From: Hormiphora californensis
Taxonomy: Eukaryota > Animalia > Ctenophora
Assembly: GCA_020137815.1 (NCBI GenBank)
Contig: CM035350.1
Coordinates: forward strand, 7,564,001 to 7,628,000
DNA length: 64,000 nt
Reading direction: 5' to 3'
Below the pieces are notes generated by a model. The model made no database searches. It was given only the letters and a program-made list of their open reading frames with translations, and was not told the DNA's origin. Each line of letters starts with the position of its first letter. The first letter of the stretch is position 1. The position numbers and the translations under genes are program-made. Below are positions 1 through 40,615 of this stretch, piece after piece.

Positions 1-1191
1 TCAGTGTTTTGGGTCTACCATTTTTTGATATACGTCTTTAAGTAACCGCTCAGATCGCCTCTCAGTGTCAGTGTCAGTTCTACTACACTGGCCCTGTGAG
101 GTAAGGGCGGCATATAAATAGACATATTATTATTATTATTATTAAAGAGAGGTTGGTTGGTTGACCGTTGAGAAGGATCGTGAGTGAAAGAAATTGGATA
201 AATTTGTTGAGTTAGCAAATACCAAGGATTACTGGCGGTGTGAACATATAGCATTTATGTTCATATGCTCATAAGAATTAGTCAGATCAATTAAACAAGG
301 CAACATTATATGGTGTCAATCTTGTTGTCGCTCCTGACGAGGCTAAAGTTAGTTCTGAACAAATCGAGTTGGATGGATCCCAGGGATAGATAGATAGAGA
401 GAAAGGGAGAGAGAAAGAGAGAGAGAGGGGGTTGATAGTTACTACAGGCAACCACACATATATACTGAGCTCTCTCATTAGATGATTGTGCTACAACCGT
501 CTTTCTGAAAGGACGATGAGTGTGCTCCCCGATACAATATCATCTATAAGAAACGTGTAAAACAGATTTCAAACTGTGGCACATGGCAGCTACACATTTC
601 AACCAGTCCTGTGGGAGAAATGAATCTATAACACACTACGCTCTGTGCTGGTATTGTATTAGATAATGGTCTAATGTATGTACTGTTATAGTAGTAATGG
701 CGTTCTCTGCAGTACATTCGGAACTCTCTGAACTAAGTTTTTTGCTTCCGACTTGGAAACACGTACCAGTTAGATGATCTGAAAAGAAGGCAAAGTTTGA
801 AATATCCCACAAAGATTACTAGATACCCGTCACCCGATACAGAATAACGGTCGCAGGAACACTCATGGACTGTCATTTTCCCAACGCAAGGTTGACAAAA
901 GGTCGGTGACTCATGATGAGATGTGTGTCATGTTCAATAAAGATGGCAGTGACGTGTCAGCCATTGTTTAAACGACCCTGAAATGTAGGAGTGAAGTTGA
1001 GAAGTATGTTTTTGAGGGCAGCCACAACACCCAACTGTACTGAGAAACAAAGCAGCTCACGACCCTTTATTGTTTACAAACGCAAATTCACTCTACTTAG
1101 TAGAGTCTACTATACAGATATATATATATAGGACACTATACACGCAGACAGCTCAGCTCTAAAGTAGCACATAAAAGCGTTCATCACGTCT

Positions 1192-4100
1192 TTACTGTCG
1201 CGTGAGTAGCTGCAAAAATATGACACTTAGAAGGAGAATGACATTGATCGCTACTGACAAGCAACCACACACAGCATCTATAGTCTTATCATCGTCATTC
1301 ATGAATCTACCCTCCTCACACACAAAGTTATCAGTGGCATTTTTGTTTACACAGGTAGCAGTTACCAGCTCCCCCTCCTCAAACGTGGCCTTCATCGGAA
1401 CTACCGTTGCCCATTCCTCATCAGGGGCGTAGCACGTAGTCACTTGAGATTCGCACGCGGTAATGGTAGGTGAGAAAGACCCACTCTGGCATTCATGGTA
1501 GGTGGTAGAATTATCAGGACATTTGATAGTAACCTGCGCTCCATTATTAAAGGAGCTCTTGCTTGGATTAATAGTGCTGCCCGATCCAGCCTCGTTGTTA
1601 TACGTGCAGGAAACTGGAGGAATGGTTATCTGTTAGATTCACAAGGACACACATGATATGCATTGAAGCATTTCCACATATTCAGATAGAGACAGATCAG
1701 CGGCAATCAAAGCAAAAAAAAAGTTTCACACAGCAAGAAAAGACACGGATAGCAAGCAGAAACCACAACCAATGTGAGGTGTCATAATATATAATCAAAC
1801 CACAAAGATATAATATGCAGTGCACGATAGGTCGTGTTGCAAAGACCTGGAGATATTCATTAGGACACATGGCGACATGCAGATGTAGCAGGTGCTGTTT
1901 AAAGATTTAACCGCTAATTTCCCATGCTTCGCAATATGCATAATAATTTTCTGTAGCATGTAACAACACGAAATAATGCTGTTCAAACCTGTGGATCCTC
2001 CACACGTGGGAATATCGTCGCTCCAAATGCCGCTGTTACATGTTAGGGTGGAAGCTCCACTTAGAGTACCTGAGTCGCATACAAATGATGCAGTTGTGCC
2101 TTCGGTCCGGGCGTCGTCGCTATATGTAACGGTCGCCCCGGAGACATATGAACTGAGATCCCAGCACGTGGCTGAAGAGGAAGAGGTGTTAAAATATAAC
2201 TAGCACGATCATTGATGCAATATATTAGAGCGTTTCAGAAATAACTTCGTGTCCCAATATCTCCAAAAGTATAAAAGATATCTACACGAAACCTTTTCTA
2301 GCATATTATTTGAACTCTTGACTACACACAACAGTGGTCACTTTGAAAAATTTAATCAAGGTTGGCTCTGGGCGAACCCGGAAATGTACCTTACTCAAAA
2401 TGCCGCTGCACGGGAAAAACGCGCGTAGTACTGAAACTGCTGTACTTCTCAAAAATTGGTTCTAAGGGATATTTTATTGCATTATACTTGTTCATTAGAC
2501 AATTCTCTTTCATTTAAGATGTAATAGAAGGTCCTAGCTTCATTCGTTGCTGAGCAATGGGTCTTTGAAAATCCTTGGCAAAATTTTGAAATTTTCACTT
2601 CCGGGTCTCTTCACGTTTTATAGGACTGACGTATAACCGATATCTTGGCAGCAAAAGATAGCTCTAAGTAAGCTTTAAGCCATTGTGAAGTCAATTATTC
2701 GCTTCGTCGGCTTATTGAAGTCAAAAATTGACGTTTTCGAACATACCCCTAAAACAAGCCAAAAATTGAGGTCAAATTTCGGTATTTTTCGTTTTTTCAT
2801 GTTACATCTACTATTCTAAATGTTTTTAGTGAACGCGTCGAGACCCAAATCACATATATATCTCATCCTTAGACGATTTGCTATCGATTGAGCACTACGG
2901 GAAGTCAAAAATCTTTACCAGCTTTCTTCCAGTGGCGTTTAGAAAAAGTTGGTAACGCCGTGCAGCGGCAGCACGACTTATGGTGCCAACGAACCAAATT
3001 TCGAGTACTTCAGGTTGTCATATATAATTCAAAACATGTTTCTAGGAAGAGAATCGTCCAATGAACAGGATAAAACTAGGTAGAAGTCTCTATCTCTTAT
3101 AGATCCCGAAATATCGCGACACGAAGTTATTTCTGAAACGCTCTAGTATTAGGGAATGAGAAACCTACTTGGTTTACTGCACAGTCCTCGTGACTGGAAG
3201 TTTTCCGAGTTTTTGGTGTACCACTCTCCCGTGATCTTGTGAATGAGACCCCACTTTTTATGGTTTGTATAAGACTCCCTGTTGTCGTATCCGGCGGGGG
3301 TATAGCCGTCAATCCATTCGACGTATCCTGTCTTTTCGAGATCTCTGAATGGGAATTCTCATAGTATTTGACGTAACTATAAGATGACCCTGGCCCTAGA
3401 ATTGCTCATACCTCACACCTACACATGTATACCTCCCACCTATAACACCCCTACACACATATAATATATCAGAAGTTTCGTTATTTTTTATTCCAGCTTT
3501 ATTATAATACTTGTATTCTCAACTTACATAAGTCCCATCCATAAGAGGTTGTCATTATCGGTCGAAGCCTCGGTAGATCCGTAATCAGCCTGAATCATTG
3601 CCACAACTATGTCGTTGTGGTACTCTGTTGGAATAACAGCAAGTGTGAGACCCTGCTCTTCACAACTAGCTTTACAGACGTCATATGTTGTCTTTTCAGC
3701 ACCGTTGCAGTAACTGTACTCAAACTCTGGAAAGGTGGATTAATTTGGTGATGAGAAGCTAGATAAGAAGGCCTTACCTTATAACAGTGTCAACTTTTCT
3801 TAGTTCATTAAGTTATTATTACCTCGGGCCTGTGTCACGCGAATGGTATAAGCGTTCTTGAACATATTGCAGTTATTGGCGTTATCGTCTCTGTTGTAGT
3901 TGATATACCCTCCATCGCCCCAGTCCGCACCATAACTGATGGATGTAGTGAGTTTTAAAGGATTTTATAGTATTTTATTTGTGCGACAACTCAGGGACCT
4001 CGAGTAAGTTACCTTGCCCGGATTCGGAAAGTAGTCTCTGTGTATCCAACAAGGAGCATAATGTGGGACAAAGCATCGGTTGCACAGTCTACATCGGTAT

Positions 4101-5634
4101 AGTCGCCTGAAAGATGCGTGACTTAATTGCTAGAAACATGTCTGGCGCCAGACCCCGTTTTCATTGTCCTACAGTGCGCTCAGATCGGGTCGGCTCCAGT
4201 CATCTTAGAGACCAGATCTTAAATATGGTTGATGAGCCGGATGACTCTTTTAGTCCTCTTTTAACGTCAACTACATCATACATGGTTGCCATGGCAAGTG
4301 TATCAGTAACCAAAGAGACTCAATTGCTGAAATTTCTTAACAGCTTTGGACATTTCCAAACTATATTAACTGTTTTCCCAAAAAATATAATAGAGAGTAG
4401 AAACTTGGCCTTGGTTGATTATGTGCCTAGCCAATAGCCATACATGGGATGAAAAGAATAGTGTCTACCAGAAAAGTGTATTTACCACCAGAATAAGTTT
4501 GGAGGTCGTTGCTGATGTATGACAAGTATGCCACGGGCGATGTGCTTGTTAGACCCTCCAGGAAGCTTGTCTCGTCATTTGCAAGTCTTTCGTAGTCCTG
4601 GAACCATAACTTAGTGAATGCGTTACCAGTCCGGGTCGCATAATCATCATCAAAAGTACAGGGTCGATCTGGAAAGAATTTTATATATTACGTCAACTAA
4701 CATTTTCCAATGGTTTATAACATTTGACACGAAACTTACAATATGCAGTGTACTCGAAATCCTCTGTTGACTTCATATATTGCCGAGATTTTATTACTAT
4801 AAATCCATCTTTGGTAGTCCCACCGCCACATCCATCAAAATCAAAGGTGCAGTCAACAAAATACTGCTCAGAAAAGTCAACAAGCTCACCAGTCAGTTCC
4901 TTGTATAGCGCTTCAACACTTCCCGTCTAGAATAATTATGGTGTGTGTGTGTATTAGCGCCATCAACTATTTATAGTATCTGACTAGTGTCCGGTTAGTC
5001 GTTGTCTCAGTGTCTGTTTAGTCTCTGTTGGTCTCCATCGTCTCACCGTTGGGAATGACCAACATGATCCACAGCTCAGCTGATCCTTTGGGGGTACAAA
5101 TCCTACGGTATTTTCCCAGTAATCGTAAGTGGCAGGGGAGACTGCTGGACCGTTTACTGCGCCTAGGAGCTGGACTTATACTGCGCCTAGGAGGTCTTCT
5201 TCCTCGCTTGGAGTCTTCTTCCTCGCTCACAACAGAGGTGGCGTTCATACGAGCCTGATATATCTTGTAACGCTCAAACTCCGCATTATTCTAAAAAGGG
5301 GCGGGGGTATTATTATAGTACTAGAGAGCCCAGGCAAAAGACCCAAAACTCCTCTCGCCCCCTACTGACTCCTCCCACCCCTATCGAATCCTCCCAATAT
5401 CTATTGACTGCTCTCGTCCCACATTCTTCAGCACCCTCCCTCCCCGCCCCCGGGCTATGTTGACCAACTCACCCCATAACCCCCTTACAGCCAGTTGGAG
5501 TCCTACAACAACCCCCCCCCCCCCCCGGTCTCTATGTCTCTCTCCCCCTCTCCGTCTCTTTCCCTGTCCCCTCTCCAATGGATAGTCTCCATCTATCCCC
5601 TTCTCTCTTTATCCCTCTCACCCCATCATTCCCT

Positions 5635-5701
<67 letters not shown>

Positions 5702-7136
5702 ATCTCTCTCTCACTCTCTCACCACAAAACACGACAGGAACACGCAATACAACACCCAACAACATGCACGTGCAGTATTAACACTCTTGCCCACCATCAT
5801 GGCAACTCCCCAAACCCCCACCAAACACCCCTAACAACACGTCAATTTTCCACGTGCAAGTCCTAAAACCCCCTCCCCCAAATTTTGTCTTGCAACCATC
5901 TCTGCTTTATAATATAGACTAGAAAGCCCATTGAAGTCCTAAAACAGCCCCCCACCCGTCTCTAATCTCTATGCCCCCCCCTCTCACTCTTTGTCTCTCC
6001 ATGTCGGGGTAAAGAATACGGAGGTTGGTAGTGGTAGAGCGCTGGTGATAAACATCAAGGGAAATTCCGCTGAATAACATGTAGAATCAGGTGATAAAGA
6101 TCCGTAGAATTGTAGCTAAGTAGAGAATCAATGGGGTACGTAGGTAGAAAGGCTTTGCAATCATGGCGGCCCCAGCAGTAGATCCCAAAACACCACAGGA
6201 AAACCACAGGAACACGAAACAAACAACCAACAACATGCACGTGCAGTATCCCCCCACAACCTCCAACCTTGGCAACCCCCTCTATTTGCACGTGATGATA
6301 GGTCATCATACTCACCACGACGTTCATTTGTACTTTATAATATAGACTAGAAAGCCCATTGTTAAGTCCTATAACAGCCCCCCACCCGTCTCTATGCCCC
6401 CCCCCCCCTCTTACTGATCTTCGTCTCTCCATGTCCGGGTAAAGAATATGGAGGTTGGTAGTGGTAGAGCGCTGGTGATAAACATCAAGGGAAATCCCGC
6501 TGAATAACATGTAGAAACAGGTGATAAAGATCCATAGAATTGTAGCTGTGTAGAGAATCAACGGGGTACGTAGGTAGAAAGGCTTTGGCATTCATCGGGG
6601 CCGCAGCAGTAGATGGCAAAACACCACACAGGAACACACAACAAACAACCAACAACATGCACGTGCAGTATCCCCCCAAAACCTCCAATACCCCTCCCAA
6701 GCCACCTCCTTGGCAACCCCCCACCATTTGCACGTGGGATACTACATCATACTCCTCACTACGACGTTCATTTGTACTTTATAATAAGGACTAGAAAGCC
6801 CGTTGGCTGGACCCCGTTGATGTCTCTCTCTCACTCTCTCTTCCCCCCCCCCTCTCTATCTATCTCTATCTCTCTCTCTCATCTCTCTCTCCTCCTCTCT
6901 CCATCCTCTCTCTCTCTCTCAATCTCTCTCTCTCTCTCGTCATCTCTCTCTCCTCATCTCTCTCTCTCAGGCTACATCTCTCCTCTCTCCTATCTACCTT
7001 CTCTCACTTCATCTCTTCTCATATCCTTTCTCTATCTCTCTTGTCCCTCTATCTCTCTTTCCTCTATCTCTCTATCTCTCACTCTACTAGCCGCTATCCC
7101 TTGTATCTCTACTCTATCTTTCTCGCTCCTCTTTCT

Positions 7137-7181
<45 letters not shown>

Positions 7182-7963
7182 AGCCTCTCCTCTCTATCTC
7201 TCTTTGGTCTCTATCTCTAGCCTCTCTTCACTCACTCCTCTCTCTACCACTCTCTCACTCCATCCTGCCGGGCTGAAGAATATGGAGTGGCTGGTAGAGT
7301 GGTAGAGGATCGTGATGTAACATCAAGGGTCATCGTTAGATGTTGCTGCTTGAAACGTGTCGAAATTAGGTGATAAAACATCGTAGAATATAGAATTGTA
7401 GCTGTGTAGATAGAGTAGTTTACGTGGGTACGTAGGTAGAAACGCTTTGTTATTATCGGGGGCCGACGCAGTAGATTGGCCAAAACACCCGCAGGACAAC
7501 GAAACACAACACCCAACAACATGCACGTGCAGGTATTCACATCCTTGCCCACCAACCATAACCAACCCCTGATCGCACGGGCAAATGGTGGCAAAATTGT
7601 TTGCACGCTAGTGTTGCAAGCTAGGGATACTCCCATCACCAACGCCACGCTATTTGTACTTATAATAAGGACTAGAAAAGCCGTTGGCTGGACCCCGTTT
7701 ATGTATCTCTCTCTCAACTCTCTCTTCCCACCCCCACTCCTATCTATCTCTATCTCTCTCTCTCTCCTCATACTCTCTCTCTCTAGTCCTCTCTTCTCTC
7801 TTCTCTCTCTCTCTCTCTACCCATTCTCTCACTTCATCTCTTCATCATATCCTTTCTCTATCTCTCTCTGTCCCTCTATCTCTCTTTCCCTCTATCTCTC
7901 TATCTCTCACTCTATCTAGCTCGCTATCCCTCTGTATCTCTATCTTTCTCGCTCCATCTCTCT

Positions 7964-8006
<43 letters not shown>

Positions 8007-8887
8007 AGCTCTCTCCCTCTCTATCTCTCTTTGTCTCTATCTCTACCTCTCTCACTCACTCTCTCTCTCACTCTCTCACTCCATCATGCCGGGCTGAAGA
8101 ATATGGAGGTTGGTAGAGTGGTAGAGATCGTGATGAACATCAAGGGTCATCGTTAGATGGCTGCTTGAAACGTGTCGAATTAGGTGATAAACATGCGTAG
8201 AATTGTAGCTGTGTAGAGTAGTTAACGGGGGTACGTAGGTAGAAACGCTTTGGTATTCATCGGGGCCGAAGCAGTAGATGGCAAAACACCGCAGGAACAC
8301 GAAACACAACACCCAACAACATGCACGTGCAGTATTCACATCCTTGCCCACCAACCATAACAACCCCTTGATTCGCACGGGCAAATGGGGCAAATTGTTG
8401 CACGCTAGTGTTGCAAGCTAGGATACTCCATCACCACGCCACGCATTTGTACTTTATAATAAGGATAGCTGGTTACGGCATACGGAGTGTGTACCTGTAT
8501 AACAGTGCACAATGGGATTAATGACTAACTAACTAATAACTAACCATTATAGAGAGCCTGTTGAGGGATTGGAGCATAGTATTTGTGGTTGTTTTTTCTA
8601 CGCTTTTTTGGAACTGAATTAACCGTGCATACCGCTCACTGAAATAGGTAGTAGTAGTATATCAGGGACGGATAGTTTATCAACAGGGAATTATGTTCGG
8701 ATAGGGGGAAATCCTGTTCGTACTCGCTAGTCGTTCGAATGTCTTACCTTCTGTCTTTTCCTTGAACTGATTCAAAACCCCATCTCTTTAGAGTGTTTTG
8801 GAACAGCTGGGCCGTTGGAACTGTTACCTTTCCTGCCTGGGTCGAGACAAGGACAAGCCCCAGGAAGAGCAAAACGCGAACAAACAT
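1192..8887 (-). CDS. Multidomain papain-family (C1A) protease-like protein with C-type lectin domain, three sushi/CCP-like modules and C-terminal GPI/TM segment (spliced; apparent frameshifts)
   Basis: Hand-spliced exons: 8887-8748 (signal MFVRVLLFLGLVLVSTQAG), ~8638-8545 (prodomain-like), ~5291-5047 (KDQLSCGSCWSF), 4926-4740 (LVDFSEQYFVDC..GCGGG), 4668-4486, 4106-4013 (SHIMLLVGY), 3935-3823 (SYGADWGDGGYI), 3726-3528 and 3344-3169 (CTL: CKASCEEQGLTLAVI..EWIDG..GEW..GLC), 2171-1989 (sushi), 1613-1192 (two sushi-like modules + hydrophobic tail). GT-AG junctions are phase-compatible except for +1 indels near 3540 and 5135. Confidence 0.88.
2228..3143. mobile_element. Non-autonomous Tc1/mariner-like DNA transposon (MITE) in intron
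   Basis: Perfect 26-bp TIR GAGCGTTTCAGAAATAACTTCGTGTC at both ends (extends imperfectly), flanked by TA on each side; no coding capacity. Confidence 0.85.
5320..8465. repeat. Head-to-tail array of ~5 compound units (430-880 bp) with embedded (CT)n tracts
   Basis: Blocks AACATGCACGTGCAG (~5761, 6231, 6652, 7517, 8318), TACGTAGGTAGAAA and TTTATAAT..GACTAGAAAG recur in the same order. Confidence 0.85.
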
Positions 8888-13065: not shown

Positions 13066-16000
13066 CTATTTGATCTTAGTCACTTTATAATTGGTCAGTA
13101 GGAGCGATACAATTGCTGCAGCGCCACAAAGGCTTGTCATGGAGTGGTATATCACGTCCCAACTCTCAAACATGTCCACATATTTTAGTAGGAAACTGAA
13201 ACCCAGAACGGCCAGACCAGGACCAGCTCTCACTAGGCCATACTTGATACCAAAGTCTCGTTTCCCAAAGTATGTGTAGAGGCAGGTCGTGAAGAGGATT
13301 TGAGAGGCGAATATAGCACCGTTCAGACACATGCACACCAGATAGAGAATGTCTGGGTAGAAGTTACTGAAAAAGAAAGGGGATTTAGTTTCAAATTGTT
13401 TAAAACAGCACGTTTGACTAAAACGAGACTACTAATACGGGGAATGGGATACAAAAAGAATTGTTGACTGAGTATTGAAGTCCAAGTACCTGAAAAGGGA
13501 CCAGTAGACTGATTCCACACCCGCCATTCCCAAAATAGCTGCCCCAATAATAAGATACTTGCTCCGGAACCGGTCCGATAAAGCACCCCACATCAGACGG
13601 CCGAGGGCGTTCACAAAGTTTCCCGCTACTGCTATCGTGGTCAGAAACTGGTCACCTGATGTATGGGGAGAGAGGTCAGGTATTGAAATTGTGAGAATGA
13701 TTGGGGGTGAGGCGCATGCAGCATATTTTATAAGTCTGTTAAGTGTCCTACAAGTACATTATGTGACAATATGTGATAATATGTGGTTTTTGGTGGGGAT
13801 TTCGGGGTTTATTACATCTCCACCTCTCACTTTAACCTACTTTTGATGACAGTCAGACCGTATGCTTTGTAGTAAGTGTAAAGCATTGTCCGGCAGATTT
13901 TAGCAACACTGTACACGATAGTGATGATGTAGAAATCACATCGATAGAAGAGGGAGGTCCACGGGCCACTTAGATCAGCCTTGGAACCTGATTCATCATC
14001 ACTCAAATTGAGACCCTCCTCCTCATCCTCAAGAATCTCATCTATAATGACTGTATCCGCTTTGGTACGGTAGGAAGACTGGGACTGCGATATCTTTCGG
14101 ACTAACTGAGGGGAATTATAGATGGGGATGGTTTAAAGTTGAACTATCCATGTCTGATTAGACGGAAATGAGAGTAGTTTTTAATTCGGATATTAAATAT
14201 TATGTGAAATATATGAGGGTTTCTGCAGGCAACTATCCAGATCCTTGTTATAGTTGTTAGATCGATCAGACGGAAATGATGCAGGTAGTTTTCAAATATA
14301 TGAGGGTTAGCAGGTGGCCCAGCTAACATGCAACTCAGTAACTAGGGCATCCGGATATTCGGTGACCTGGGACATATATTGCCTCTGCTCTCGCGGGCAT
14401 ATTATTATATTACTATTATATACACGTACATATTTATCAGAGATAGCACATGTATATATTTATCAGAGATAGCACTAGCACCACTAGCCTACCTACCTTG
14501 TAGTCAGGGAAGGAAGCGTGGGAAAGGTCATAGTTGAGTGATCGAACAGAACGGACGTAAGCAATGTCGTCCGACTCTTCAACCAGAAATTCGCCCTCCT
14601 CAATGAGCTCTTCTTCTGCAGGGGTAGTAAGGTTTAGAAATTGAAGTTCGGTGACATATGTCAGTGTCATATATTCTCAGAGGGAGTAATATATGAACAG
14701 AATTCCGTTTAAAAAGTTAACTCGTTTAAAAATATAGTAAAATTTTCAAGACTCTAACCGATCTCGTCATTACCACCCTTCTCTTACCCTGTGGTAAGGA
14801 AATGAAGCAAGCAGTTAGGGACGAGAGGTTACAAAGGTAGCAATACCAAGTCCCAGGAAGTAGATTGGGATCATATTGAGTACGGCAGGTTCCTCAAAAT
14901 AACCGCTCTCTGCCACAGGTAAGTTGGAGGGGTTGATGACAAGGTTCCCCAGGATGGAGAAGAATGTGGACCCAATACTCTCTGAGAAACTGATGATCCC
15001 TATGGCAATACCCTTGTTCCTCTTGCCCCACTCCATGCACACCACTGTATAGGGGGAGAATTTCCAGTTAGAATTGCTGTTGATTAACAAGCTGACATTG
15101 CGTAGCTGCTATGATTAATCAATATGCTGCTGTAAACTACAGTAGTTTGGAATGTTTTGGAAATATATGGGGCTACATCTTTGAGTTTGGGCAACAGAAG
15201 TAACAGACTCTGATGTCACTAGAAATGTGTATCAACAACTGAAGTACCTATAATGGTGGCTTGAATGATAGCGCTGAAGAAAGACAGGGCTGAGGTGACG
15301 AACACAAATGCCCAATAACTCTGAAGTGCGAAATAACAGGACGCCGTACAGACAGAGAGAAACAAACTTGCCAACACTGCCGTCTGTTTTATACCTAGCA
15401 TACTGGGGAGGAGGGATGTTAGTATGTTTTATACCTAGCATACTGGGGGAGGAGGGATGTTAGTATGTTTTATACCTAGCATACTGGGGGAGGAGGGATG
15501 TTAGTATGTTTTATACCTAGCATACTGGGGGAGGAGGGATGTTAGGCTCTTCTAAGTTTGTCACGTACCCCGCTACTTCTCTTTTTTATTTGTTTTCTCA
15601 TGCAGAGAGGGGAGGTGGAGGTGACTACATATTATTATTATATAAAAACCGCAGCTCAATCTCGCATGCTTTTCTTTGTGACAATCATGCTTTTCTTTGT
15701 GACAATCATTATGAATCGCTGAAATATACTAATCTCTCTAGTAGTAGTCAAGATGTCTAGTCTTGATGTCACAGTGACATCTTGACTAGACAGTCACTCA
15801 TAGTTAAACTATTAAGTTATAAATACCAAAAGAATAAATTTCATAATCATAATGCTCCCAAAATGTATTCAAAACCCAATGTTTTAAAGGGAAAGCTTGA
15901 ACAAATCATTGTTCATGTTAAGCCTCTTCAACATCAATAAAGATGCCTGATCATGTCCATCCCGCACGGTGCAGTGCACCACGATGACCTTCAGGAAGGT

Positions 16001-21307: not shown

Positions 21308-23269
21308 TCACGTGACCTGGTCCTCGTTTGTATAATAATGTTCCTCCATATGTCGGGTAAACTTGGTTACAATTACCGTGAGGGGCAGCGACAGGAAAAT
21401 AACCCCGGCCATAATGGCCACTGATGCAACACTAAGACCCATCCAACTAGTTGGCACAACATCCCCATACCCAATGCCGGTAACGGTTACAACCGCCCAC
21501 CACATGGATACTGGAATGGAACTAAACCCAGGTGTCCTACCATCCAAACACTCTATATAGTGGATCACACTTGCAAAGACGAGGGTGATGATGAAGAACA
21601 GCCCGCACAGTACACACAGTTCCCGGGTTGATTTGAAGAGGAAATGGAAGATGGTGGTGAGGCCGTGGGAGTGTCTGATAACCCGGAATATCCGAGTTAT
21701 CCGGAGCATCCGGCTAAATCTCAGCACCACAAGAGTTTTGACATCCTTCTCGTCTAACAGCTTGATAATAACGGGAATGTAGTAGGGAAGAAGGGAGGTT
21801 AGGTCACAGAGATTCATGGAGCTGAGGAAGAATGTCTGTAATCTCGGCCAAGATAGCATTCGGAGAATAAAATCTGTGGTGAAAAACACCCAGCTGGTTA
21901 TTTCAATGATTGCATTAGTTTTTAATAAGATGTAACCCAGACCAATCGTAGTCTTCTCATCTTCTGTCCTGGTTGAATAACGTTTGGTATAGTCCTGCAT
22001 GTAGGGTTCAGATTCAACCATTAGCGCACTGATAGAGAGGAGTACAAGGATATTATCAAGGATCATCCAGAGAAGAGAAAACAGGGAACTCTGGGGGTTG
22101 GTAAGAAACAGGTACAACTTCAATTTGGCCAACTTGAGTCTGTTCCACCCGGGCCCATCTCTGATGTTCTCCAGTATTGTATCGCCGTCGTCTCCTGATC
22201 CGGACACCGCTGAGAACCTTCTCAATGCATATTGTATCCTGAAAAACTCCAGCTCCCTATTCAGGGCATCTCTATTTTTGTTGTCGTTAAGAAACCCAAC
22301 TGGTAGGTTGAGTGCGCCCGTTTGGTAAAACTGCAACACATACTCAAACAAGAATCGGCTTCTGTCAAAGAAATAACAGCCCATATCGAGTCTGTAGTAT
22401 TTGTTGATGGCTGCTGACCCCAGGAGTGTATCAGGATATTGTCGGAGAACAACATGTCTTACAACAAACTCTTCACCTCCCACATTAATTAGGATGCTAT
22501 TGCTGAGTGACCCGGGTCTCGTGCCCCCTCCACCGCTTGGACCCTGGGTGCACGTTGTCAGTGATTTGCTGTCATCCCCTTCCTGGGGGTCTGGTGACAA
22601 CATTGACATACGGGACTCCCGGACAAAGTGTTTGATACTATCCCCAACGTTCATCTTAACCTCAAATATGTCCGCCACTTTTGATGAGTCCATGATGGGT
22701 GTCCGGAAATAATCGGACAGGGAGACATGTGAGCTGGATGCAAAGAGGGATGGTGTTCGTCGTTTCAGGGGTAGATTGTTTGGTGCCTGCCTGATGTACC
22801 CTGGACTGATTGTATTGAGAATGTCCCTCAGCCCGTCACCCCGTCCTGTCCTCCATTGCTGACTACCATCCGATATATTTCCCAGAGAGGGTCGTCTCTT
22901 TTTCTTGGACATCTTCACCGTGCACCCACTACTCCCCCCGACCGAGGGTGTGGGTAGGGATTTGTGGGTCAACATGAGGGGAACAGCTTCAGGTGCCTGA
23001 TCACGATGTATAGCAAGGCTCCTAGGAGACATCTCTGGAACATTGGACAGAGCAGTCTCGTAGGACTGGGAGGAAGGTCCCCTCGATTTGGGTTTCCGGG
23101 GTTGGCGGAGAGTGTTCAGGTCTGGAGGTTCCTTCTTCTTCCTCCTTCGGTTGTGTCGTGGTCTGTCTCGGGGTGCAGGAGCAGTGGGAAGGAGGAGGTA
23201 GACACCATCGTTAGATACCCTACTGGAGGAGATGTCACTTGCTGCTCCGGCTGACGATGAGGATTGCAT
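21308..23269 (-). CDS. Intronless Shaker-family voltage-gated K+ channel subunit (653 aa)
   Basis: T1 domain (ILINVGG..YPDTLLG..FFDR), S1-S6, S4 LRFSRMLRITRIFRVIRHS, pore WWAVVTVTGIGYGD, S6 LSLPLTVIV. Confidence 0.95.
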   Translation of the reverse strand: MQSSSSAGAASDISSSRVSNDGVYLLLPTAPAPRDRPRHNRRRKKKEPPDLNTLRQPRKPKSRGPSSQSYETALSNVPEMSPRSLAIHRDQAPEAVPLMLTHKSLPTPSVGGSSGCTVKMSKKKRRPSLGNISDGSQQWRTGRGDGLRDILNTISPGYIRQAPNNLPLKRRTPSLFASSSHVSLSDYFRTPIMDSSKVADIFEVKMNVGDSIKHFVRESRMSMLSPDPQEGDDSKSLTTCTQGPSGGGGTRPGSLSNSILINVGGEEFVVRHVVLRQYPDTLLGSAAINKYYRLDMGCYFFDRSRFLFEYVLQFYQTGALNLPVGFLNDNKNRDALNRELEFFRIQYALRRFSAVSGSGDDGDTILENIRDGPGWNRLKLAKLKLYLFLTNPQSSLFSLLWMILDNILVLLSISALMVESEPYMQDYTKRYSTRTEDEKTTIGLGYILLKTNAIIEITSWVFFTTDFILRMLSWPRLQTFFLSSMNLCDLTSLLPYYIPVIIKLLDEKDVKTLVVLRFSRMLRITRIFRVIRHSHGLTTIFHFLFKSTRELCVLCGLFFIITLVFASVIHYIECLDGRTPGFSSIPVSMWWAVVTVTGIGYGDVVPTSWMGLSVASVAIMAGVIFLSLPLTVIVTKFTRHMEEHYYTNEDQVT

Positions 23270-23400
23270 TGCTAAAAGTAGGAGATAATCAACGAGATGG
23301 AAGAAGTACGGAAGTGAAGTAAGGAAGGTTTGATAGAGAGCGGTGGTAAATACGAGACAACTATACTGCTAATACCAGTCAAACGTCGTGTGTTTTTGGT

Positions 23401-24463: not shown

Positions 24464-26377
24464 TCAGAGAGTCTGTAAAGTTGGGGGTTCATACTCATCA
24501 TCATCTGCAATCCCCTTCCACAGAGTAGACCCCTTTTTCTTCATATACTTGGCAAACTCGTGGAGGATGATAGCAAGAGGGAGGGCCAGGAAGACTAGAC
24601 CACTAACTATGGCAATGGATCCCACCACCTTGCCCATAGAGGTCCGAGGTGTGACGTCACCATATCCAATACCCGTCAGGGTGACAACCGTCCACCACAT
24701 GGCACTGACAATGGACACTAACCCCGGGTCTCCCTCCCCTGGGTGCATTGTCTCCGTCGAGTAGATGGCAGATGCGAAGAATACCACCATGATGAGGAAG
24801 AGCTGGAGGAGGACCACCAAGTCACCAAGACTGCTCACCAACATGAATTCAAAAACAAACTGGAGCCGTTGGGAGTGCCTGACAATCCGGAATATCCGGG
24901 TAAATCGGAATGTCCGGATAATCCGGATAACAACCAGGCTCCTGACCTCGCTGTGGCCCACCAGTTGTATAATCTGGGGTACGTAGAATGGAACCAGGGA
25001 GATAAAATCACAGATGTTACTTCCGTTCGTTATGAATGATTTCACTCCTGTCATGGTGTTCTTACTAGGCCACGCTATCAACCTTAACATAAAGTCCACG
25101 GTGAAGAAGGCCTGTATACTGGGCTGTACGACACGGTTTACAATATGGAGGGCGCCTGATTGGAACGCGTGGTAGAAGATGTCCTCAGACTCCAGGAGGA
25201 TGAATGATAGAGAGAGAACGACAAGGAACACATCAACCACCATCCACAACATGGCCAGTTTGGAACTGTTAGGATTTGTTAGGAACACATACAGGGCCAA
25301 CTTCCGGGCAATCCACTTGCCGAGATCAGGCTCTAACTTCACTAGCATTGCAGCCGCCTCCTGTCTCTGTTCCTCAAGAGTTGGCTCTATTTCCTCTGTA
25401 TCCCCTCCCACTAGCTCATACCTGATCCTGAAATAGTCCAGTTCCCGTACCAGGGCTTCCTCTAGTTTCCCGTAACAATGGGGCTCGGGGGAGGCGGTGG
25501 CAGCGAAAAACCCTCCAGCCACAGTCAGTTGACCCTTTTGGTAATACTGGAGGATGAATTCAAAGAGCATTCTGTTCCGATCAAAAAAGAAACACTCTAG
25601 GTCAGTTCTGTAAAAGTTAAACAGTTCGTCTGATCCAAGGAGGGTATCTGGGTACCGCCTGAGAGACCCTAACCGCACTGAAAAATCCTCCCCGCCAACA
25701 TTTATCGGAATAACCCAATTCATGTCAAGTTTATAATCAACATCTCCAGGTAGAGTAAGATATGATGTATCATCTAGTGTGGGTATGTTGGGTGTGGCTC
25801 GGGAGGAACGTGGAACTGGCAGTGTCCGGGGTCTAGTCGGGGGTATCCTAATCTCACCCTCCTCTTTGAGAAACTGCTTGATTGTATCCGCTACACTGGC
25901 AGTAAAGGGGCTCATGGCCCTTGAGAAGTTATCATAACTTGTATAGTTCTCCTCTACGTGGATCCCACTTGTTGATCCCCTCTTACTGAGGGACCCTGCT
26001 GGTACCAACATCTTCTCAAGGTTGCCTCCGAACCATCCTACCCCGGGCCCACTGGGACCCACTACCACCACCGTGGGGGAGAGGGAGTATTTGATGATGG
26101 GAGGAGGGAGCGTGGCATCCGGTGCCGAGTGGAATATCTCTGAAGTGGATGTGGAGGCGGTGGACTCTCCGCCCAATGAGGAGGAGGATGAGGATGAGAA
26201 GGTTTCTTTGATCCGGGGTCGGTGTGCAGCTGGGGAGGGAGGTTCCACCTCATCAGGACTAAACAACAAAGTTCCATCTGTAACTATCCTCCGACTGGGC
26301 TTCGTCCTCCTTCTAGCTGCCCTTCTCCTAGCTGCCCCTCCCGATCCCCCGGCACGCTCCGAGGACCGTAGTAACAT
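24464..26377 (-). CDS. Intronless Shaker-family voltage-gated K+ channel subunit (637 aa), tandem paralog
   Basis: T1 (INVGGEDF..YPDTLLG..FFDRNR), S4 IRIIRTFRFTRIFRIVRHS, pore WWTVVTLTGIGYGD, S6 LALPLAIIL. Confidence 0.95.
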   Translation of the reverse strand: MLLRSSERAGGSGGAARRRAARRRTKPSRRIVTDGTLLFSPDEVEPPSPAAHRPRIKETFSSSSSSSLGGESTASTSTSEIFHSAPDATLPPPIIKYSLSPTVVVVGPSGPGVGWFGGNLEKMLVPAGSLSKRGSTSGIHVEENYTSYDNFSRAMSPFTASVADTIKQFLKEEGEIRIPPTRPRTLPVPRSSRATPNIPTLDDTSYLTLPGDVDYKLDMNWVIPINVGGEDFSVRLGSLRRYPDTLLGSDELFNFYRTDLECFFFDRNRMLFEFILQYYQKGQLTVAGGFFAATASPEPHCYGKLEEALVRELDYFRIRYELVGGDTEEIEPTLEEQRQEAAAMLVKLEPDLGKWIARKLALYVFLTNPNSSKLAMLWMVVDVFLVVLSLSFILLESEDIFYHAFQSGALHIVNRVVQPSIQAFFTVDFMLRLIAWPSKNTMTGVKSFITNGSNICDFISLVPFYVPQIIQLVGHSEVRSLVVIRIIRTFRFTRIFRIVRHSQRLQFVFEFMLVSSLGDLVVLLQLFLIMVVFFASAIYSTETMHPGEGDPGLVSIVSAMWWTVVTLTGIGYGDVTPRTSMGKVVGSIAIVSGLVFLALPLAIILHEFAKYMKKKGSTLWKGIADDDEYEPPTLQTL

Positions 26378-27223
26378 GGGAGAGTCCCAGATATATCAAT
26401 TTGAGAGATTGATGGTATAATACAACTTGTATTGTGAGTACGTGTGCAAATACAAATAATCAAGTGGTAGTGAATTTTCGTATAAACTTCTCTCAGCTGG
26501 CCAGATTTAGCTGGTGTACAGCTAAAAGTATCTCTATTAGATTAACAGCTCTGAAGCCATGTCAGATGGTGTGATTGTAGCGACTCCTGCCAGGTGTATG
26601 GGTTATGGGATGGGTTAAAACACCCCGCAGCCAACCAACCTGGTATATGATGTGTGGGTGTGGTTTGTATACGTCCTCATCCTCTCCATGTCGCCATATT
26701 GCAGTAGTTGGGGAGGAGGGTTGTAGTTGTACACATGCAGCACAGCATTGACAGCGAATAAATACATGCAGCTATATGAGGAGTGTTTTTAATAGGGGGG
26801 GGGGGGCTTTAGTACAAAAAAACACAACAAAAACACGTGATTTTTAGGAAATGTTGGAACTGGAATTTAAATAATAGGAAATCAACTCAATTTCTCTTTC
26901 TCTCTGATTATGCTTTGGTAACTGATTCTCTTTACATTGGTACTACAGTAAACTAACACATAACACAACTAAATAAACTAACAACAGCTACAAAGATCTG
27001 TACAAAACTAAAAACGTCATAATAATAATATAATTCTCGTCATGCTACTTTATGCCACGCCTGGTTTCTTAAATAGATCTGGTAGGCGTTACCAGTCAGA
27101 TATAACAAGTAGGCATCAACATATTATATCAACATAATGTTTATCACCAGTAATGACTTGTCAGAAATGGGGGTGACAATGCCATATCAGAGTCTCTCTC
27201 TCTCTCTCTCTCTCAGTCCACAC

Positions 27224-34738
<7,515 letters not shown>

Positions 34739-36059: not shown

Positions 36060-38973
36060 TCATCAAATGTAGAATTCTCTAATATATGTGCTACTAGCAT
36101 TCTGAACTTGCGTTTCACGTTTTTGTCTTGACAAAATATTAAGGGGATACGGTAGTTAATTCGTAGATGGCTAAAGAACTGAGCTCCTGTCTTAGAGCAG
36201 ACACTGCCCCTGCAGATACACATTCAAATAGTTTGTGGTAAGATGAGTCGGGCAACAACCCACACTCTAGGCATGTCGGAACGGACACCGTGCTGTCATG
36301 CTGCAGATACCGGAACGCAAAGTTCTGAAAACGTAGATTATGACCGTGAGTGAAGTCGATAATCGCCGTAGATTCTCCTCTACTGAGAGCTCGATGGAGA
36401 AGAGGGGTGAGAACAACTTCCCTTGTGTTGACCAGTCTTCTCAAGTCCTCCACCGTGTGACTAGGTTCCAGCGTATATTCATCGGTTTTGAAAAGGTGTT
36501 CCATTTGTTGTTTGACGGTATCATCCCACAGTTTGTATCCGTAGTCGTCTATTTCTCCTTTGGTGTACAATAGCTGATCTCGCTCATAGTTTATCAAGTC
36601 ACATCTTCTGAGAAAGCTCCTTCTTCTCGTAGCTGCCGGAACATTAGCATCTGTGCTCTCCTGATCCTGGTCCTCCACCCATCGGAGATAGCATTTGGTC
36701 ATGGTTAGATGATGTGCGAACTTATGGTACGGTTCCGAGTCAATTTGTAGAAGTTTGGCACTGATGCTATCCTCAGCTAGCAACCCTTTCAGCACAAATT
36801 TGATCGTCAGAATCCTCAAGGTGACTGCAAGAGGTGGTACTGTTGTGAGAAGGTCTCCTATCATGTTTGGGACATGAAACTGACTTCCCAGGATTTTCAG
36901 CTTGGCTCGAGCCATGAGGTCTTTAAAGCTTGATATCCGGTCTTCCAGCCAGAGAGGGGGCCGCGTATAGTAGCTTCGTAAGCACCACTTTTTTGAAAAG
37001 TAAAGCCAACGAAGTACTATTCAGTCCATCCGTTCTAGTTGTGGATGTCGAGAGTCTACTCCATGCAAACCAGCATTTCTTTAAGGTAAAGGACGCATGT
37101 TGTTGAAAGTTCAGGTCTTTGTCTAGGTAAACGCCCAAAACCTTGCTGGAATCTGCATATAAAATTTCTTCATTGCCGAGGTAGAATTTTGGAAGTACTG
37201 TCGGTGGTTCTGATCTTTTAGGACGTACAACAAGGATTTCAGTCTTGTCTTTTCCACAGTTCACCACCAGCCGCCAAGTCCTACACCATTCGTAGATGTA
37301 TTGTAGTACTCTTTGCATAGATGATTCACATTCTTTGTCTGTACCAGTGATAACTACAGTTCCATCGTCTGCAAATTTGAATGTTTCAGTGTGGTGACGA
37401 ATATCAGTTGGTAAGTTTCTCGTAGTCAGAAGATCTCCGATGTAAAGGATAAATAGGAGAGGCGAAAGTACTGCTCCTTGTGGTAATCCTGTGGTTCCAC
37501 AGATTCTGGCTCGTCCCACCTTTCCGTTGCCCGACCTCCCATATGTTTCAGAGTTCTCGGGTGAACCCCATCTCCATCCGCTGCCTTTCCACTCCAATCC
37601 TGTGCTGAGATCGCCTGTTCCACTTCTCTTCGTTCCACTTTGCTATTCAGTAGGTTCTCCTCTCCAGGTTCCTCGTCCGTTAAATCCACTGACATGATGT
37701 CCTCCACTTGCCTGCATATCCGCCTGTACTCCTCTTCATCGAAGTCCCTGTTCTTGAGGTGTTCCCCTTCAAAGTACGTCCTAAACAGTATATCTTCTTT
37801 TTCTGATTGACTGTGTTTCAGGGTGCCTTCAAAATCCAAACACCCTATGAAATTTTCCTCTTGGGCCAAGAACAATCCTCTGTAGCGCTTCCAGAAAAGA
37901 TTACTGTCGTGCACATTTAACCCTTGAAGTCGTTCATGTATCCACTTGTTCTTACTCTTAATCAGCGTCTCCTTGAAGATGGCTTTCGCTGCTTCCACGA
38001 GTTCTTTATTCCGAGTTGTTCGCCTGAATTGATAGTGTCGTAGAGCTCCTTGGAGATTTTTTGATAGTCCCGACAGTTCATGTGTCCAGAATGGTTTGCT
38101 ATATCGACAGATAGTCTTCTTCGAGATGAATAGTTCACATGCTTCTCTATGTATCCTCAGAAACTCCTTGTACAAGTCCTCTGGATCTTCAGTTCCACGT
38201 ATTTCCGGAAGATGACGCTCCAAAAATTCCTTCCACTCGTCCCACTCTGCTTCCTCGTAGTTGAATACCCTCTTCCGCTGTATGTGTTTATTGACCTGAC
38301 CAATTGTTATATGTACTGGTATGTGTCCTCGATCCGGCGCTCCAGTGAACAGACAAAGCCCTTCGTCCTGATCGACCCAAAGTCCCCTAAGTGGTCCAGA
38401 GTTGCCAAATATCAATGTTAGATCTATGACACTACCTCCTCCAGCGCATAGAAACGTATTCCTCATCGGTGATAAGATCCGGGCCCCCTGCTGGTTACAA
38501 AATGTCTCTAGTAGATGACCATTGCTGTTGTAAAGTCTATCGCCCCAAGCTTGTCCTCTCGCGTTAAAGTCCCCCATGACTTGGAGAGTAGCAACCCCGT
38601 TTGCATAACAGTATCTCCAAGCCTCTTGAATGGTGCTCAGTAGTCTGCTGAGGTCCGACGACGGGCTACTGTATACCGAAGCATACATCACAGGTCGCTT
38701 TGAAGGTGTTGCAATCACGAAAACAGCTGCAACACCCTTTACTTCTAAACTGGGAATTCTCTGAGGATAGAACGACTTATCAACCGAGATGGTGACACCT
38801 TGATCGTCTGCAACTCCAAAAGTTCGTAGGTTTTTGAAAACGTCCTCGTTTGGTACCGTACCGGTTTCCTGCAGTGCCAGTACCGTGATGTTTCTATCGG
38901 AACAATAGTGGTCAATCGCTGTACTGGAATGAGAAGAGAGGCCCGAAATATTTAGTTGACAGATACTAACCAT
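36060..38973 (-). pseudogene. LINE ORF2 (APE endonuclease + reverse transcriptase), disrupted
   Basis: LALQET, MGDFNA, SVIDL (EN); GLPQGAVLSPLLF, FADD, KVLGV (RT); CLECG..H..C. Frame breaks near 37530, 36950 and 36150; the N-terminal RT subdomains are missing. Confidence 0.9.
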
Positions 38974-40615
38974 GATGAAGATCGTTTTGATGGGCAGTAT
39001 ATACTGGACAGGTTGTACTGTTGGAGTTGTGATTTCCACTGCAGTGGATACACTTGGCCTCGGCTTGACAGGGATCTGCTGTATGCGTGCTTACCCTCTC
39101 ACCACATTGAACGCAGGCCTCGTTGTTATTGCACCATGCGGTCCAGTGCCCGTATTTCCAACACTTTCGACATTGGAGCGGTTTGATCACCCGTCTGTCG
39201 ATATACTCACGTATACGGAAGTGCCTTGTGTCTATGTTTAGTCCCATAGTTATAGCCTTATTCCTCAGATCTTCCGATTCAAAGATTAGCCGTACAGAGT
39301 ATCTTGGGTTTCCATTGTTATCAGTGAATCTGTAAACTTTTGGCGTTGTTCCCAGTTCTTCCGAGCAGGCTTCCATAATCTCAGTATCAGAGACTTCTAG
39401 AGGAACATGATCCATAACTGCCTTTTGACTCGGACCTGTGTTAGCGAGGATGACGGCTGAGGTTTTAGTCCCTTCACCCCCAAAGAATTTATGTTGCCAC
39501 CCGTCAACTACCTTATGTGCATCTGCAGGGGATGTCAATTCTATAAGCAATGAACCCCTAGTGGTAGGTTTAAATTGGTCTACTGGCATGTTAGGATAGT
39601 TTAAATTAAATTCAGTCAAGATTAAATGTCCCTGTGCTAAATATCTACTATAATTAACCACCCCTCTCACTTGTACAGTCCGTTTTGGATCACATCTCGA
39701 CTTCCCTACTTCTCTCGTTCCCTCAGGCATCTTAGGCCTCACCGTTCCACCGATTGACTGTCCCATGGTGTTCACTCTTCCGGCATCTTGCCATGTTGAA
39801 TCATTGGCTGGTTCACGGATCAGGACGTCCCTGCGACGGGCTGGGCTGAATGTTACATTGTTTGAGCTCACAGCAGATGTTGTACTAGCAGTGTTCAAAG
39901 GAGGAGTCAAGTAACTCTTGTTCAATGATTTACCGACTTCCTCTACAATATTGGTGTTTATATCGGTAAGAAACGCGGTAACTTTGCCTATCATGGCCTG
40001 CTCAAAGTTTTCTAAACGATCGTCCAATATCTTCTGGGTAAGTACAGACGGTTCGTTGCTCATACTCTTAATAGTACAGTTCAGTTCATCGTCCCTACAG
40101 CTGGGACAGAACCATGCTAAACCCTCGTATTCGTTTATCAGCAAACAGGTTTTATCATCATCTAGAACGGCAGAACAGTCACTATTTCGGCATGTTACAG
40201 TATACTCTCCATTGATGGTTGACGGGGCATTAGATGCCTGCTCATGTAGATCGTCCAAAAGTTCAAGCGTGAGACAGTACGCACTCCTCAATAACTGTAG
40301 TATATCAGTACGGCTGGGCTTGGAAGACGGGGGATTTGGTGATCCCTTGGTGACAAAATTCATTAACCCTTTCTGTTCAACTGCGGCTTTCAACGCAAGA
40401 AATCCATCGTGGGTGTCTCGAACAGCAAGCACAGAAGAGTAGGCTTTCACCTTCTGCACCGAAGTTGACACTGCACTTAGTTGTTGCTTTTGGGCTTCAA
40501 TAACCGTTTGCTGAAGCTCAATCACGCTAAGACGGTGGCGATCAAGTTCTTCTTTGCATTCACGTAGTTGCTTCTCGAGTTTTTCTGCGCTGATAACATT
40601 TTCAAAATTGTTCAT
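38966..40615 (-). CDS. LINE ORF1 (coiled coil, PHD-like Cys cluster, RRM-like region, three zinc knuckles)
   Basis: QCRKCWKYGHWTAWC, CVQCGERVSTH..C, CIHCSGNH..C; WFCPSC; first ATG at 40615. Confidence 0.88.
   Translation of the reverse strand: MNNFENVISAEKLEKQLRECKEELDRHRLSVIELQQTVIEAQKQQLSAVSTSVQKVKAYSSVLAVRDTHDGFLALKAAVEQKGLMNFVTKGSPNPPSSKPSRTDILQLLRSAYCLTLELLDDLHEQASNAPSTINGEYTVTCRNSDCSAVLDDDKTCLLINEYEGLAWFCPSCRDDELNCTIKSMSNEPSVLTQKILDDRLENFEQAMIGKVTAFLTDINTNIVEEVGKSLNKSYLTPPLNTASTTSAVSSNNVTFSPARRRDVLIREPANDSTWQDAGRVNTMGQSIGGTVRPKMPEGTREVGKSRCDPKRTVQVRGVVNYSRYLAQGHLILTEFNLNYPNMPVDQFKPTTRGSLLIELTSPADAHKVVDGWQHKFFGGEGTKTSAVILANTGPSQKAVMDHVPLEVSDTEIMEACSEELGTTPKVYRFTDNNGNPRYSVRLIFESEDLRNKAITMGLNIDTRHFRIREYIDRRVIKPLQCRKCWKYGHWTAWCNNNEACVQCGERVSTHTADPCQAEAKCIHCSGNHNSNSTTCPVYTAHQNDLHHG

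Follow-up and report, generated by a model that had tools for sequence, protein, structure and literature searches.

A papain-family protease gene with C-type lectin and sushi modules in the ctenophore Hormiphora californensis, predicted to encode a surface-held enzyme

The window analyzed here is a 64-kb stretch (64,000 nucleotides) of the Hormiphora californensis assembly. On its minus strand lies a gene that runs from an ATG at 8887 to a stop codon at 1192-1194. Manual splicing of the window gave 11 exons and 10 introns, all 10 with GT-AG borders, and a product of 677 amino acids comprising a signal peptide, a propeptide, an RSKR motif, a C1A (papain-family) domain, a C-type-lectin fold, sushi modules and a hydrophobic tail (Table 1). 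Pleurobrachia bachei (P. bachei) models are 83% identical to this product. A preliminary description of the locus had given the gene's extent and its C-terminal sequence exactly as recovered here, and its order of signal peptide, prodomain, furin-like site, C1A and C-type lectin agrees with the spliced exons and with Pfam. For exon 11, the first AG (1632) was dropped as acceptor because a stop falls in the required phase, and 1613 was taken. No second copy of the gene was found by tblastn within the window.

Table 1. Coordinates of the gene and associated features in the window.
Feature	Position	Strand	Description
Exon 1	8748..8887	-	Signal peptide (~residues 1-19) and propeptide start; tblastn to P0173/P0003 59%
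Exon 2	8545..8638	-	Propeptide helices
Intron 2	5291..8544	-	3254 nt; CT microsatellites and degenerate tandem repeats
Exon 3	5047..5290	-	Propeptide end, RSKR, mature-domain start with oxyanion Gln148 and catalytic Cys154
RSKR furin-type site	5150..5161	-	Residues 122-125, exon 3
G4 run, one surplus base in assembly	5135..5138		Apparent frameshift, exon 3
Cys154 codon (papain Cys25), catalytic	5062..5064	-	
Exon 4	4740..4926	-	C1A domain; RNA contig over 4768-4925
Exon 5	4486..4668	-	C1A domain
Exon 6	4013..4106	-	Catalytic His297 (4063-4065); Ala313 (4015-4017) at papain Asn175 position
Exon 7	3823..3935	-	C1A domain end; Tyr at papain Trp177 position
Exon 8	3528..3726	-	C-type lectin-like domain, first half
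Exon 9	3169..3344	-	C-type lectin-like domain, second half; without EPN/QPD/WND
Element with terminal inverted repeats, 925 bp	2222..3147		Intron 9
Exon 10	1989..2171	-	Sushi module 1; Pfam E 8.9e-5
Exon 11	1192..1613	-	Sushi-like modules 2 and 3, hydrophobic tail (~1195-1260), stop; RNA contig 1106-1415
AATAAA, candidate polyadenylation signal	1066..1071	-	From sequence

As assembled, the coding sequence measures 2035 nt, and the surplus base in the G4 run of exon 3 produces a +1 frameshift that, left uncorrected, would end the protein at residue 164. All four DNA runs covering the site (X1, X2, X5 and X6, from two studies) have one base fewer at 5134/5135, so the frameshift is an assembly error. 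A mini-intron was ruled out, as the nearby GT..AG pairs span just 12-16 nt and the DNA runs differ by a single base. The frameshift had gone unmentioned in the preliminary description; a single error of this kind can conceal such a gene. The 925-bp element in intron 9, missing from one X6 contig and one X2 contig, is a polymorphic insertion.

RNA evidence came from six records in all (two metatranscriptomes), with contigs over exons 4, 8, 9, 10 and 11, which answers the concern that the locus might be untranscribed. Splicing as modelled was seen for two of the ten introns, at the exon 8/9 joint (3343/3528; X7 and X9) and the exon 9/10 joint (2171/3169; X7). Intron 7, at the protease-lectin junction, and seven other introns were crossed by no RNA contig among the six records, and run X11 contributed no match. 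In relatives, three cDNA-like contigs of 2.0-2.3 kb (L001-L003) carry an uninterrupted ORF of 604-661 codons with C1A, lectin fold and sushi, and in P. bachei model P0002 the protease runs into the lectin at the position matching the exon 7/exon 8 junction. The frameshift in the assembled window and the want of spliced RNA over intron 7 would fit a pseudogene, or two neighbouring genes merged in the first reading. This is exceedingly improbable, given the corrected base in every covering DNA run, the RNA over five exons and the 54 proteins, out of 283 examined, in which C1A and the family's lectin domain share a polypeptide. The locus is an intact, transcribed gene, and the earlier proposal of a single fused gene is upheld by exon joining and by the single-ORF relatives. 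Leaders on contigs L001-L003 suggest trans-splicing, and an AG acceptor at 8892, 5 nt upstream of the ATG, may be a trans-splice site.

Per-exon Pfam searches matched Peptidase_C1 on three exons, and full-length homologues matched it at E 1e-23 to 1e-33. An AlphaFold model of the Bolinopsis homologue P0173 (pLDDT 87.5, pTM 0.80), which is 47% identical to the window protein, has a papain fold and not a trypsin fold (Foldseek E 4.8e-18; pro-cathepsin H at Z 28.5, rmsd 3.6, 292 aligned). From residue 20, its proregion superposes on pro-cathepsin H and pro-papain, although propeptides of family members are unmatched by Pfam I29. The predicted furin-type site held up, and R-x-K-R is common to P0004, P0005, P0173, P0177, P0182 and P0186; many Gly-type paralogues lack such a site.

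Alignment of the family was used to assess conservation of the catalytic residues. The window protein keeps the nucleophile Cys154 (Cys151 corresponds to papain Cys22), His297 and the oxyanion Gln148, which among covered rows are conserved in 32/33 (Cys), 35/36 (His) and 32/33 (Gln); only in paralogue P0006 are all three missing together. Ala313 replaces Asn175, the third triad residue, a loss that the first reading overlooked, and Tyr315 stands at the Trp177 position. Across 36 members the Asn175 site holds Gly (14), Asn (13), Ala (8) or Gln (1), leaving 23 of 36 without Asn, and Trp177 is replaced in 35 of 36, mostly by Tyr. As a control, hits scoring below the gap were screened with the pattern: 53 of 96 failed it, and of the 43 that matched, 41 have Asn. 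A Gln two residues past the catalytic His occurs in 13 of the 36 rows, and in each of them the Asn site is Gly or Ala; since 12 of these form a single clade, it would reflect one or two events. Loss of the third residue in papain, in work by Vernet from 1995, reportedly lowered activity about 150-fold. A strong reduction is described for papain (PMC12313940), and Cys-His dyads suffice for catalysis in many papain-like families (PMC10318531). With Asn175 so often Gly or Ala, and Ala and Tyr in the window protein itself, its sequence places it as a divergent lineage of the papain fold and not a canonical cathepsin.

These substitutions, together with the fully dead P0006, raise the alternative of a nearly inactive pseudo-enzyme serving in adhesion or binding (e.g., in mucus or in colloblast glue), in which the papain fold would hold on to peptides. 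Colloblast candidates show an enrichment of sushi and lectin terms (PMC6278862); however, the three C1A proteins in colloblast and tentacle lists, compared by annotation and not by sequence, carry no lectin or sushi annotation. Because Cys, His, oxyanion Gln, propeptide and maturation site are kept across a deep clade, we consider a pseudo-enzyme improbable.

In the phylogenetic analysis, the family clade (35 rows) split from 11 cathepsin-L-like outgroup rows at 100/99, in a midpoint-rooted tree drawn without cathepsins B, C and X. All nine clade members that have names come from ctenophores and are annotated as uncharacterised proteins, in line with the earlier suggestion of a lineage-restricted system, and by sequence the family is large and expanded, with named members so far only from ctenophores. 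These include Mnemiopsis ACHWQZ_G007711, G007710, G013812 and G006506 and Bolinopsis LOC134821236, LOC134813221 and LOC134815761. A metagenome scan with P0001 gave no match. No description of the family was found in the literature searched, mostly at title or listing level, and the main text of a survey of multidomain C1A proteins contains none of 'ctenoph', 'sushi' and 'GPI' (PMC10380794).

The Pfam match of Lectin_C to exon 8 was weak (E 0.018), and the domain exceeded the cut-off in P0001, P0004 and P0173. The lectin domain of the P0173 model aligned with the lectin CEL-I (Z 16.8, rmsd 2.0, 122 aligned), giving a CTLD fold as originally proposed. Almost no linker separates it from the protease. 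In the window protein it has four Cys forming the two outer pairs, the inner disulfide being missing, and EPN or QPD was present in none of 37 family lectin domains. Among the three sushi/CCP-like modules described earlier, the first is clear (four Cys with Trp before the last) and so is the second (hhalign probability 96% to module 1, with Phe in place of Trp), while the third is weak (four Cys; hhalign 44% to module 2 and 5% to module 1, from 4 rows only). The sushi modules were hardly probed by the fold search, because protease and lectin matches filled the P0173 lists.

The C-terminal tail has a hydropathy peak of 2.6 over 19 residues and only 2-3 residues beyond it, leaving no cytoplasmic signalling domain. 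It is predicted to be a GPI or membrane anchor, in keeping with the tether anticipated earlier; its GPI form is a prediction, with an omega site poorer in the window protein (Cys-Leu-Ser) and in Pleurobrachia P0001 (Cys-Leu-Pro) than the good triplets of P0003, P0017, P0024 and P0173. Among 37 relatives, 7 tails are hydrophobic and 13 are basic and Lys-rich in place of a membrane anchor. With lectin motifs and a cytoplasmic tail missing, the tether and protease fusion of the proposed membrane-bound recognition receptor remain, but sugar recognition and signalling are unsupported, and Lys-rich tails in 13 of 37 relatives also speak against a receptor. The best reading of the sequence is a furin-activated, surface-tethered Cys-His dyad protease.

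An innate-immune sensor, in line with the earlier suggestion, would work like Factor C of horseshoe crabs but with a papain domain: binding of microbial surfaces by the lectin fold would switch on the cysteine protease. Module types in common with Factor C (PMC10581989), the expansion and varied tails of the family, and the 42 CTLD genes of Mnemiopsis discussed as immune candidates (PMC11797021) are consistent with it, and calcium-independent binding would be compatible. We nevertheless regard it as unlikely: sugar motifs and a cytoplasmic domain are lacking, paralogues share a conserved and not a hypervariable lectin domain, and a furin-type site would suit constitutive rather than ligand-triggered activation.

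C1A enzymes generally act in acidic compartments, and the mature part has a pI of 4.2, which would suit an enzyme bound to the membranes of secretory granules, endosomes or phagosomes and not to the plasma membrane; ctenophore gland cells have acidophilic vesicles (PMC6733828). Such a location is very unlikely, as three disulfide-rich sushi modules, the furin-type site and the Lys-rich tails of paralogues would fit extracellular proteins better. The product of this intact, transcribed gene is instead probably secreted, activated by a furin-type cut at RSKR and held at the surface by its GPI or membrane tail, where it would act on extracellular proteins as a likely Cys-His dyad protease. The propeptide would plug the cleft until a convertase cleaves at RSKR, so that lysosomal acid self-activation would be unnecessary. 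The sushi modules may form a stalk and the lectin fold may dock substrate or mucus independently of calcium, while loss of Asn would reduce turnover, though not to zero. Anchored and secreted Lys-tailed paralogues may represent two ways of holding one enzyme at the surface.

Compared with known systems, the family resembles cathepsin L-like C1A enzymes (papain, cathepsins L, H and K) in pro-domain, catalytic fold, Gln-Cys-His and signal peptide. It differs in its separate clade, Asn175 to Gly/Ala, Trp177 mostly to Tyr and I29-silent propeptide, and it adds a furin-type site, a lectin fold, sushi modules as a presumed stalk and a tail that is either a membrane anchor or basic. Granulin-tailed plant enzymes carry a C1A domain with a granulin module, and PF00396 (granulin) was also observed here. 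MASP and C1r are zymogen proteases with complement-control modules. Factor C, also a zymogen, unites its protease with modules of the lectin-like and complement-control kinds (PMC10581989). Factor C, MASP and C1r, in contrast to the papain-fold family, are trypsin-fold serine proteases whose catalytic domain lies at the C-terminus; they are soluble or stored in granules and are activated by ligand. Other eukaryotic C1A lineages (26/29 kDa, type 1 long C1, vWFA-C1) also fuse C1A to extra modules, but none described in the main text of the multidomain C1A survey has the C1A-lectin-sushi-anchor architecture (PMC10380794). Clostridioides difficile Cwp84, in which a cathepsin-L-like domain precedes a lectin-like domain on a surface-associated protein (Z 20.4 on P0173), may be a works-like analogue; it is bacterial and without sushi, and its lectin-like domain is not termed C-type in the published abstract (PMC4089489). 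In selectins, a sushi stalk over a membrane anchor bears a C-type lectin fold (L-selectin, Z 14.8 on P0173), whereas the window protein has no EGF module, calcium/sugar motifs or cytoplasmic tail and has a protease domain in front.

The usual picture of papain-family enzymes in animals is of soluble lysosomal proteins whose Cys-His-Asn triad is invariant. The C1A clade described here, expanded in a phylum that branched early among animals, mostly lacks the Asn, and its members are predicted to be held at the surface and activated by convertases. As a tentative first guess, which we hold with some doubt, the site of action could be the pharynx or gut lining. Pharyngeal juice of Pleurobrachia has a cathepsin-like cysteine-protease activity, termed cathepsin B-like, without an assigned enzyme (PMC6733828, section 7), for which the family offers named candidates; the activity could also come from ordinary cathepsins. 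A broader scheme, speculative and improbable as a whole, would see a papain-based extracellular protease system in ctenophores, furin-activated and anchored or Lys-tailed, that drives the digestion of prey or a defence cascade resembling that of Factor C, with Asn175 repeatedly dropped and the triad rebuilt with the post-His Gln in one clade. The natural series of Asn, Ala, Gly plus Gln, and dead forms provides a test of the role of the third triad residue.

The gene comprises 11 coding exons (see table) separated by 10 introns of 71-3254 nt, every one GT..AG. The preliminary description had recovered the gene by manual splicing; a frame break in exon 3 had gone unmentioned. As assembled, the CDS is 2035 nt with a premature stop at residue 164, and the frame changes in a G4 run (5135-5138) immediately past RSKR. 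Contigs from DNA runs X1 and X2 (one sample) have one base fewer at 5135, and those from X5 and X6 (a separate study) one base fewer at 5134; X1 and X2 may themselves be the source reads of the assembly, yet they disagree with it. Because the extra base is missing in all four DNA runs covering the site, the break is an assembly error, and bridging it gives a product of 677 aa. Of the 13 differences listed for the exons when other individuals are compared, six are silent (one being TAA to TGA) and seven change a residue, none of them catalytic. The inverted-repeat element listed in the table is present in the assembly and missing from X6 contigs and partly from those of X2.

Coding exons of the papain-lectin-sushi gene (spliced model) and other features of the window
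Feature	Position	Strand	Description
Exon 1	8887-8748	-	
Exon 2	8638-8545	-	
Exon 3	5290-5047	-	
Exon 4	4926-4740	-	
Exon 5	4668-4486	-	
Exon 6	4106-4013	-	
Exon 7	3935-3823	-	
Exon 8	3726-3528	-	
Exon 9	3344-3169	-	
Exon 10	2171-1989	-	
Exon 11	1613-1192	-	
925-bp element	2222-3147		Terminal inverted repeats, multi-copy
Transporter-like exons	around 13066-13846		
Potassium channel gene	21308-23368	-	Voltage-gated, single ORF (BTB/T1 + Ion_trans)
Potassium channel gene	24464-26395	-	Voltage-gated, single ORF (BTB/T1 + Ion_trans)
Kinesin exons	28809-33160	-	
LINE-like retroelement	36139-40684	-	ORF1-like frame, endonuclease and reverse-transcriptase-like pieces across several frames
Single ORF, 406 codons	59577-60797	+	Start resembling a signal peptide; repeats of beta-trefoil (fascin-like) type; ETX/MTX2 domain (Pfam E 6e-6)
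Slu7 (splicing factor) exons	61181-63264	-	

That this is one transcribed gene, as initially proposed, is supported by RNA joins and by relatives that hold protease, lectin fold and sushi in single frames. Two metatranscriptomes (X7 and X9) cover a small share of the locus with genuine pieces: 3528 is joined to 3344 (intron 8) in both, and X7 RNA has 2172-3168 spliced out (intron 9, lectin-to-sushi) and also spans exon 4 as well as exon 11 and its 3' flank. Two of the 10 introns are therefore seen spliced; no X7 or X9 contig crosses the protease-lectin junction, and RNA run X11 yielded no contig at the locus. The Pleurobrachia bachei model P0002 makes its protease-to-lectin join at the exon 7/exon 8 join of the window gene; model P0001, unlike P0002, retains introns 7 and 9 in frame. 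Three of 18 loci (L001-L003; cDNA-like contigs of 2.0-2.3 kb) have unbroken frames of 604-661 codons with all three domains. All three open with A/T-rich sequence that runs up to TTGAG a little upstream of the ATG and resembles ctenophore spliced leaders. The window gene has a candidate acceptor for such a leader 5 nt upstream of its ATG.

The last exon, used as a query, had a single protein match among 91 candidates, P0001 (88% identical; 83% over the length of P0001), so that a Pleurobrachia-like ctenophore is the most likely source of the window. The family search returned 23 proteins at 391-638 bits, the next scoring 147. Nine of the 23 bear species or name labels (Bolinopsis microptera, 3; Mnemiopsis leidyi, 4; P. 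bachei, 2) and are annotated as 'uncharacterized', 'hypothetical' or by id only. All nine are ctenophores, in keeping with the lineage restriction first suggested as possible; the assignment covers these labelled members, more distant ones from another search bearing no names. A midpoint-rooted tree was built from 46 catalytic domains, leaving out P0001 and P0186 because of their shortness; in it, 35 rows formed one clade (100/99) apart from 11 cathepsin-L-like rows. A C1A and a family lectin domain shared one chain in 54 of 283 proteins examined, 49 of them also with sushi, as counted with a lectin profile built from the family, which unrelated fusions may escape. The gene is real and represents a papain-like ctenophore lineage, apparently undescribed, whose architecture is new and whose triad has eroded. 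The Mnemiopsis paralogues P0177 and P0186 are a tandem duplication: their locus tags (G007711, G007710) follow one another and their C-terminal parts are almost identical.

No description of the family was found in the open literature, subscription journals and domain-architecture databases lying outside the search; the sequences themselves are already public. The available text of a Mnemiopsis immune-repertoire paper mentions CTLD-sushi proteins and contains neither 'cathepsin' nor 'papain', and its table S2 may still include these genes. The accessible portion of a papain-family survey (PMC10380794) names neither ctenophores nor sushi. In the part covered, the colloblast and tentacle candidates of PMC6278862 include three C1A proteins, for which neither lectin nor sushi is annotated. 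PMC10876535 contains neither cathepsin nor lectin. Of the other papers, PMC4089489 bears on Clostridioides difficile Cwp84 and PMC10581989 on horseshoe crab Factor C, and PMC2679143 is not relevant.

Gln148, Cys154 and His297 are present in the window protein and conserved among covered rows of the 37-member family alignment (Gln 32/33, Cys 32/33, His 35/36). The Asn175 site (papain numbering) is Ala313, and across the family it holds Gly (14), Asn (13), Ala (8, three from Pleurobrachia) or Gln (1); the Trp177 site is Tyr in 33 of 36 rows. In the comparison set below the score gap, Asn occurs in 41 of 43 pattern-matched rows (53 more had no pattern match). Gln stands at His+2 in 13 family rows, in all of which the Asn site is Gly or Ala. 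Since 12 of these form one clade (97/90), the rows are not independent instances of the correlation; the Gln may be a third catalytic residue that has migrated. Because it has Met at His+2, the window protein is predicted to be a plain dyad. Cys-His dyads are described as common across papain-like families (PMC10318531, in part), and papain activity as falling strongly without the third triad residue (PMC12313940, in part). One member, P0006 (on 1.9-2.2 kb contigs), has lost the oxyanion Gln and catalytic Cys and His, a pseudo-protease.

An AlphaFold model (109 sequences; pLDDT 87.5, pTM 0.80) was made of Bolinopsis P0173, a homologue 47% identical, with Ala at the Asn site and a hydrophobic tail. 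The propeptide is predicted to have the inhibitor fold, though missed by Pfam I29, because the model aligns with pro-papain (Foldseek E 4.8e-18) and, from residue 20, with pro-cathepsin H (Z 28.5, rmsd 3.6, 292 aligned). Over residues 343-474 the model aligns with C-type lectins (Z 16.8, rmsd 2.0, 122 aligned). The lectin domains lack the inner disulfide, and neither EPN nor QPD occurs in any of 37 rows; calcium-dependent sugar binding is unlikely, though binding of other kinds may occur. A profile of the family C-terminal parts matches factor H and complement receptors; of the three sushi modules originally described, the first is clear, the second likely and the third weak.

The GPI-like C-terminus proposed earlier holds as far as a hydrophobic run followed by 2-3 residues. 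Of 37 family rows, 7 have a hydrophobic tail of this kind, 13 a Lys/Arg-rich tail and 12 another ending, and 5 are fragments. Several relatives have good omega-type triplets, whereas those of Pleurobrachia are weak, so the predicted tail may be either a GPI signal or a terminal membrane helix; with either, no part of the protein would be able to signal intracellularly. Most likely, the zymogen would enter the ER and gain its anchor, a convertase would cut at RSKR, and the enzyme would be shown on a sushi stalk, the lectin fold serving as a docking surface next to a slow Cys-His active site. Ctenophore pharyngeal juice is proteolytic and, in the available text of PMC6733828, the enzymes responsible are not yet named, which makes the gut lining a first guess for the putative site of action; immune sensing, adhesion or an endosomal site are rival readings.

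Other C1A fusions were seen in L005:7-1785 (with CUB), L006:4-2148 (with ShK) and Mnemiopsis P0189 (with EGF), all cathepsin-L-like with intact triads. Since L005 and L006 start with the same TTGAG-ending leader as L001-L003, the shuffling of domains onto papain may be more widespread among ctenophores. Elsewhere in the window, the 406-codon ORF appears to encode a secreted ctenophore pore-forming protein of the aerolysin type, and the two potassium channel genes form a tandem pair, both with GYGD in the pore.
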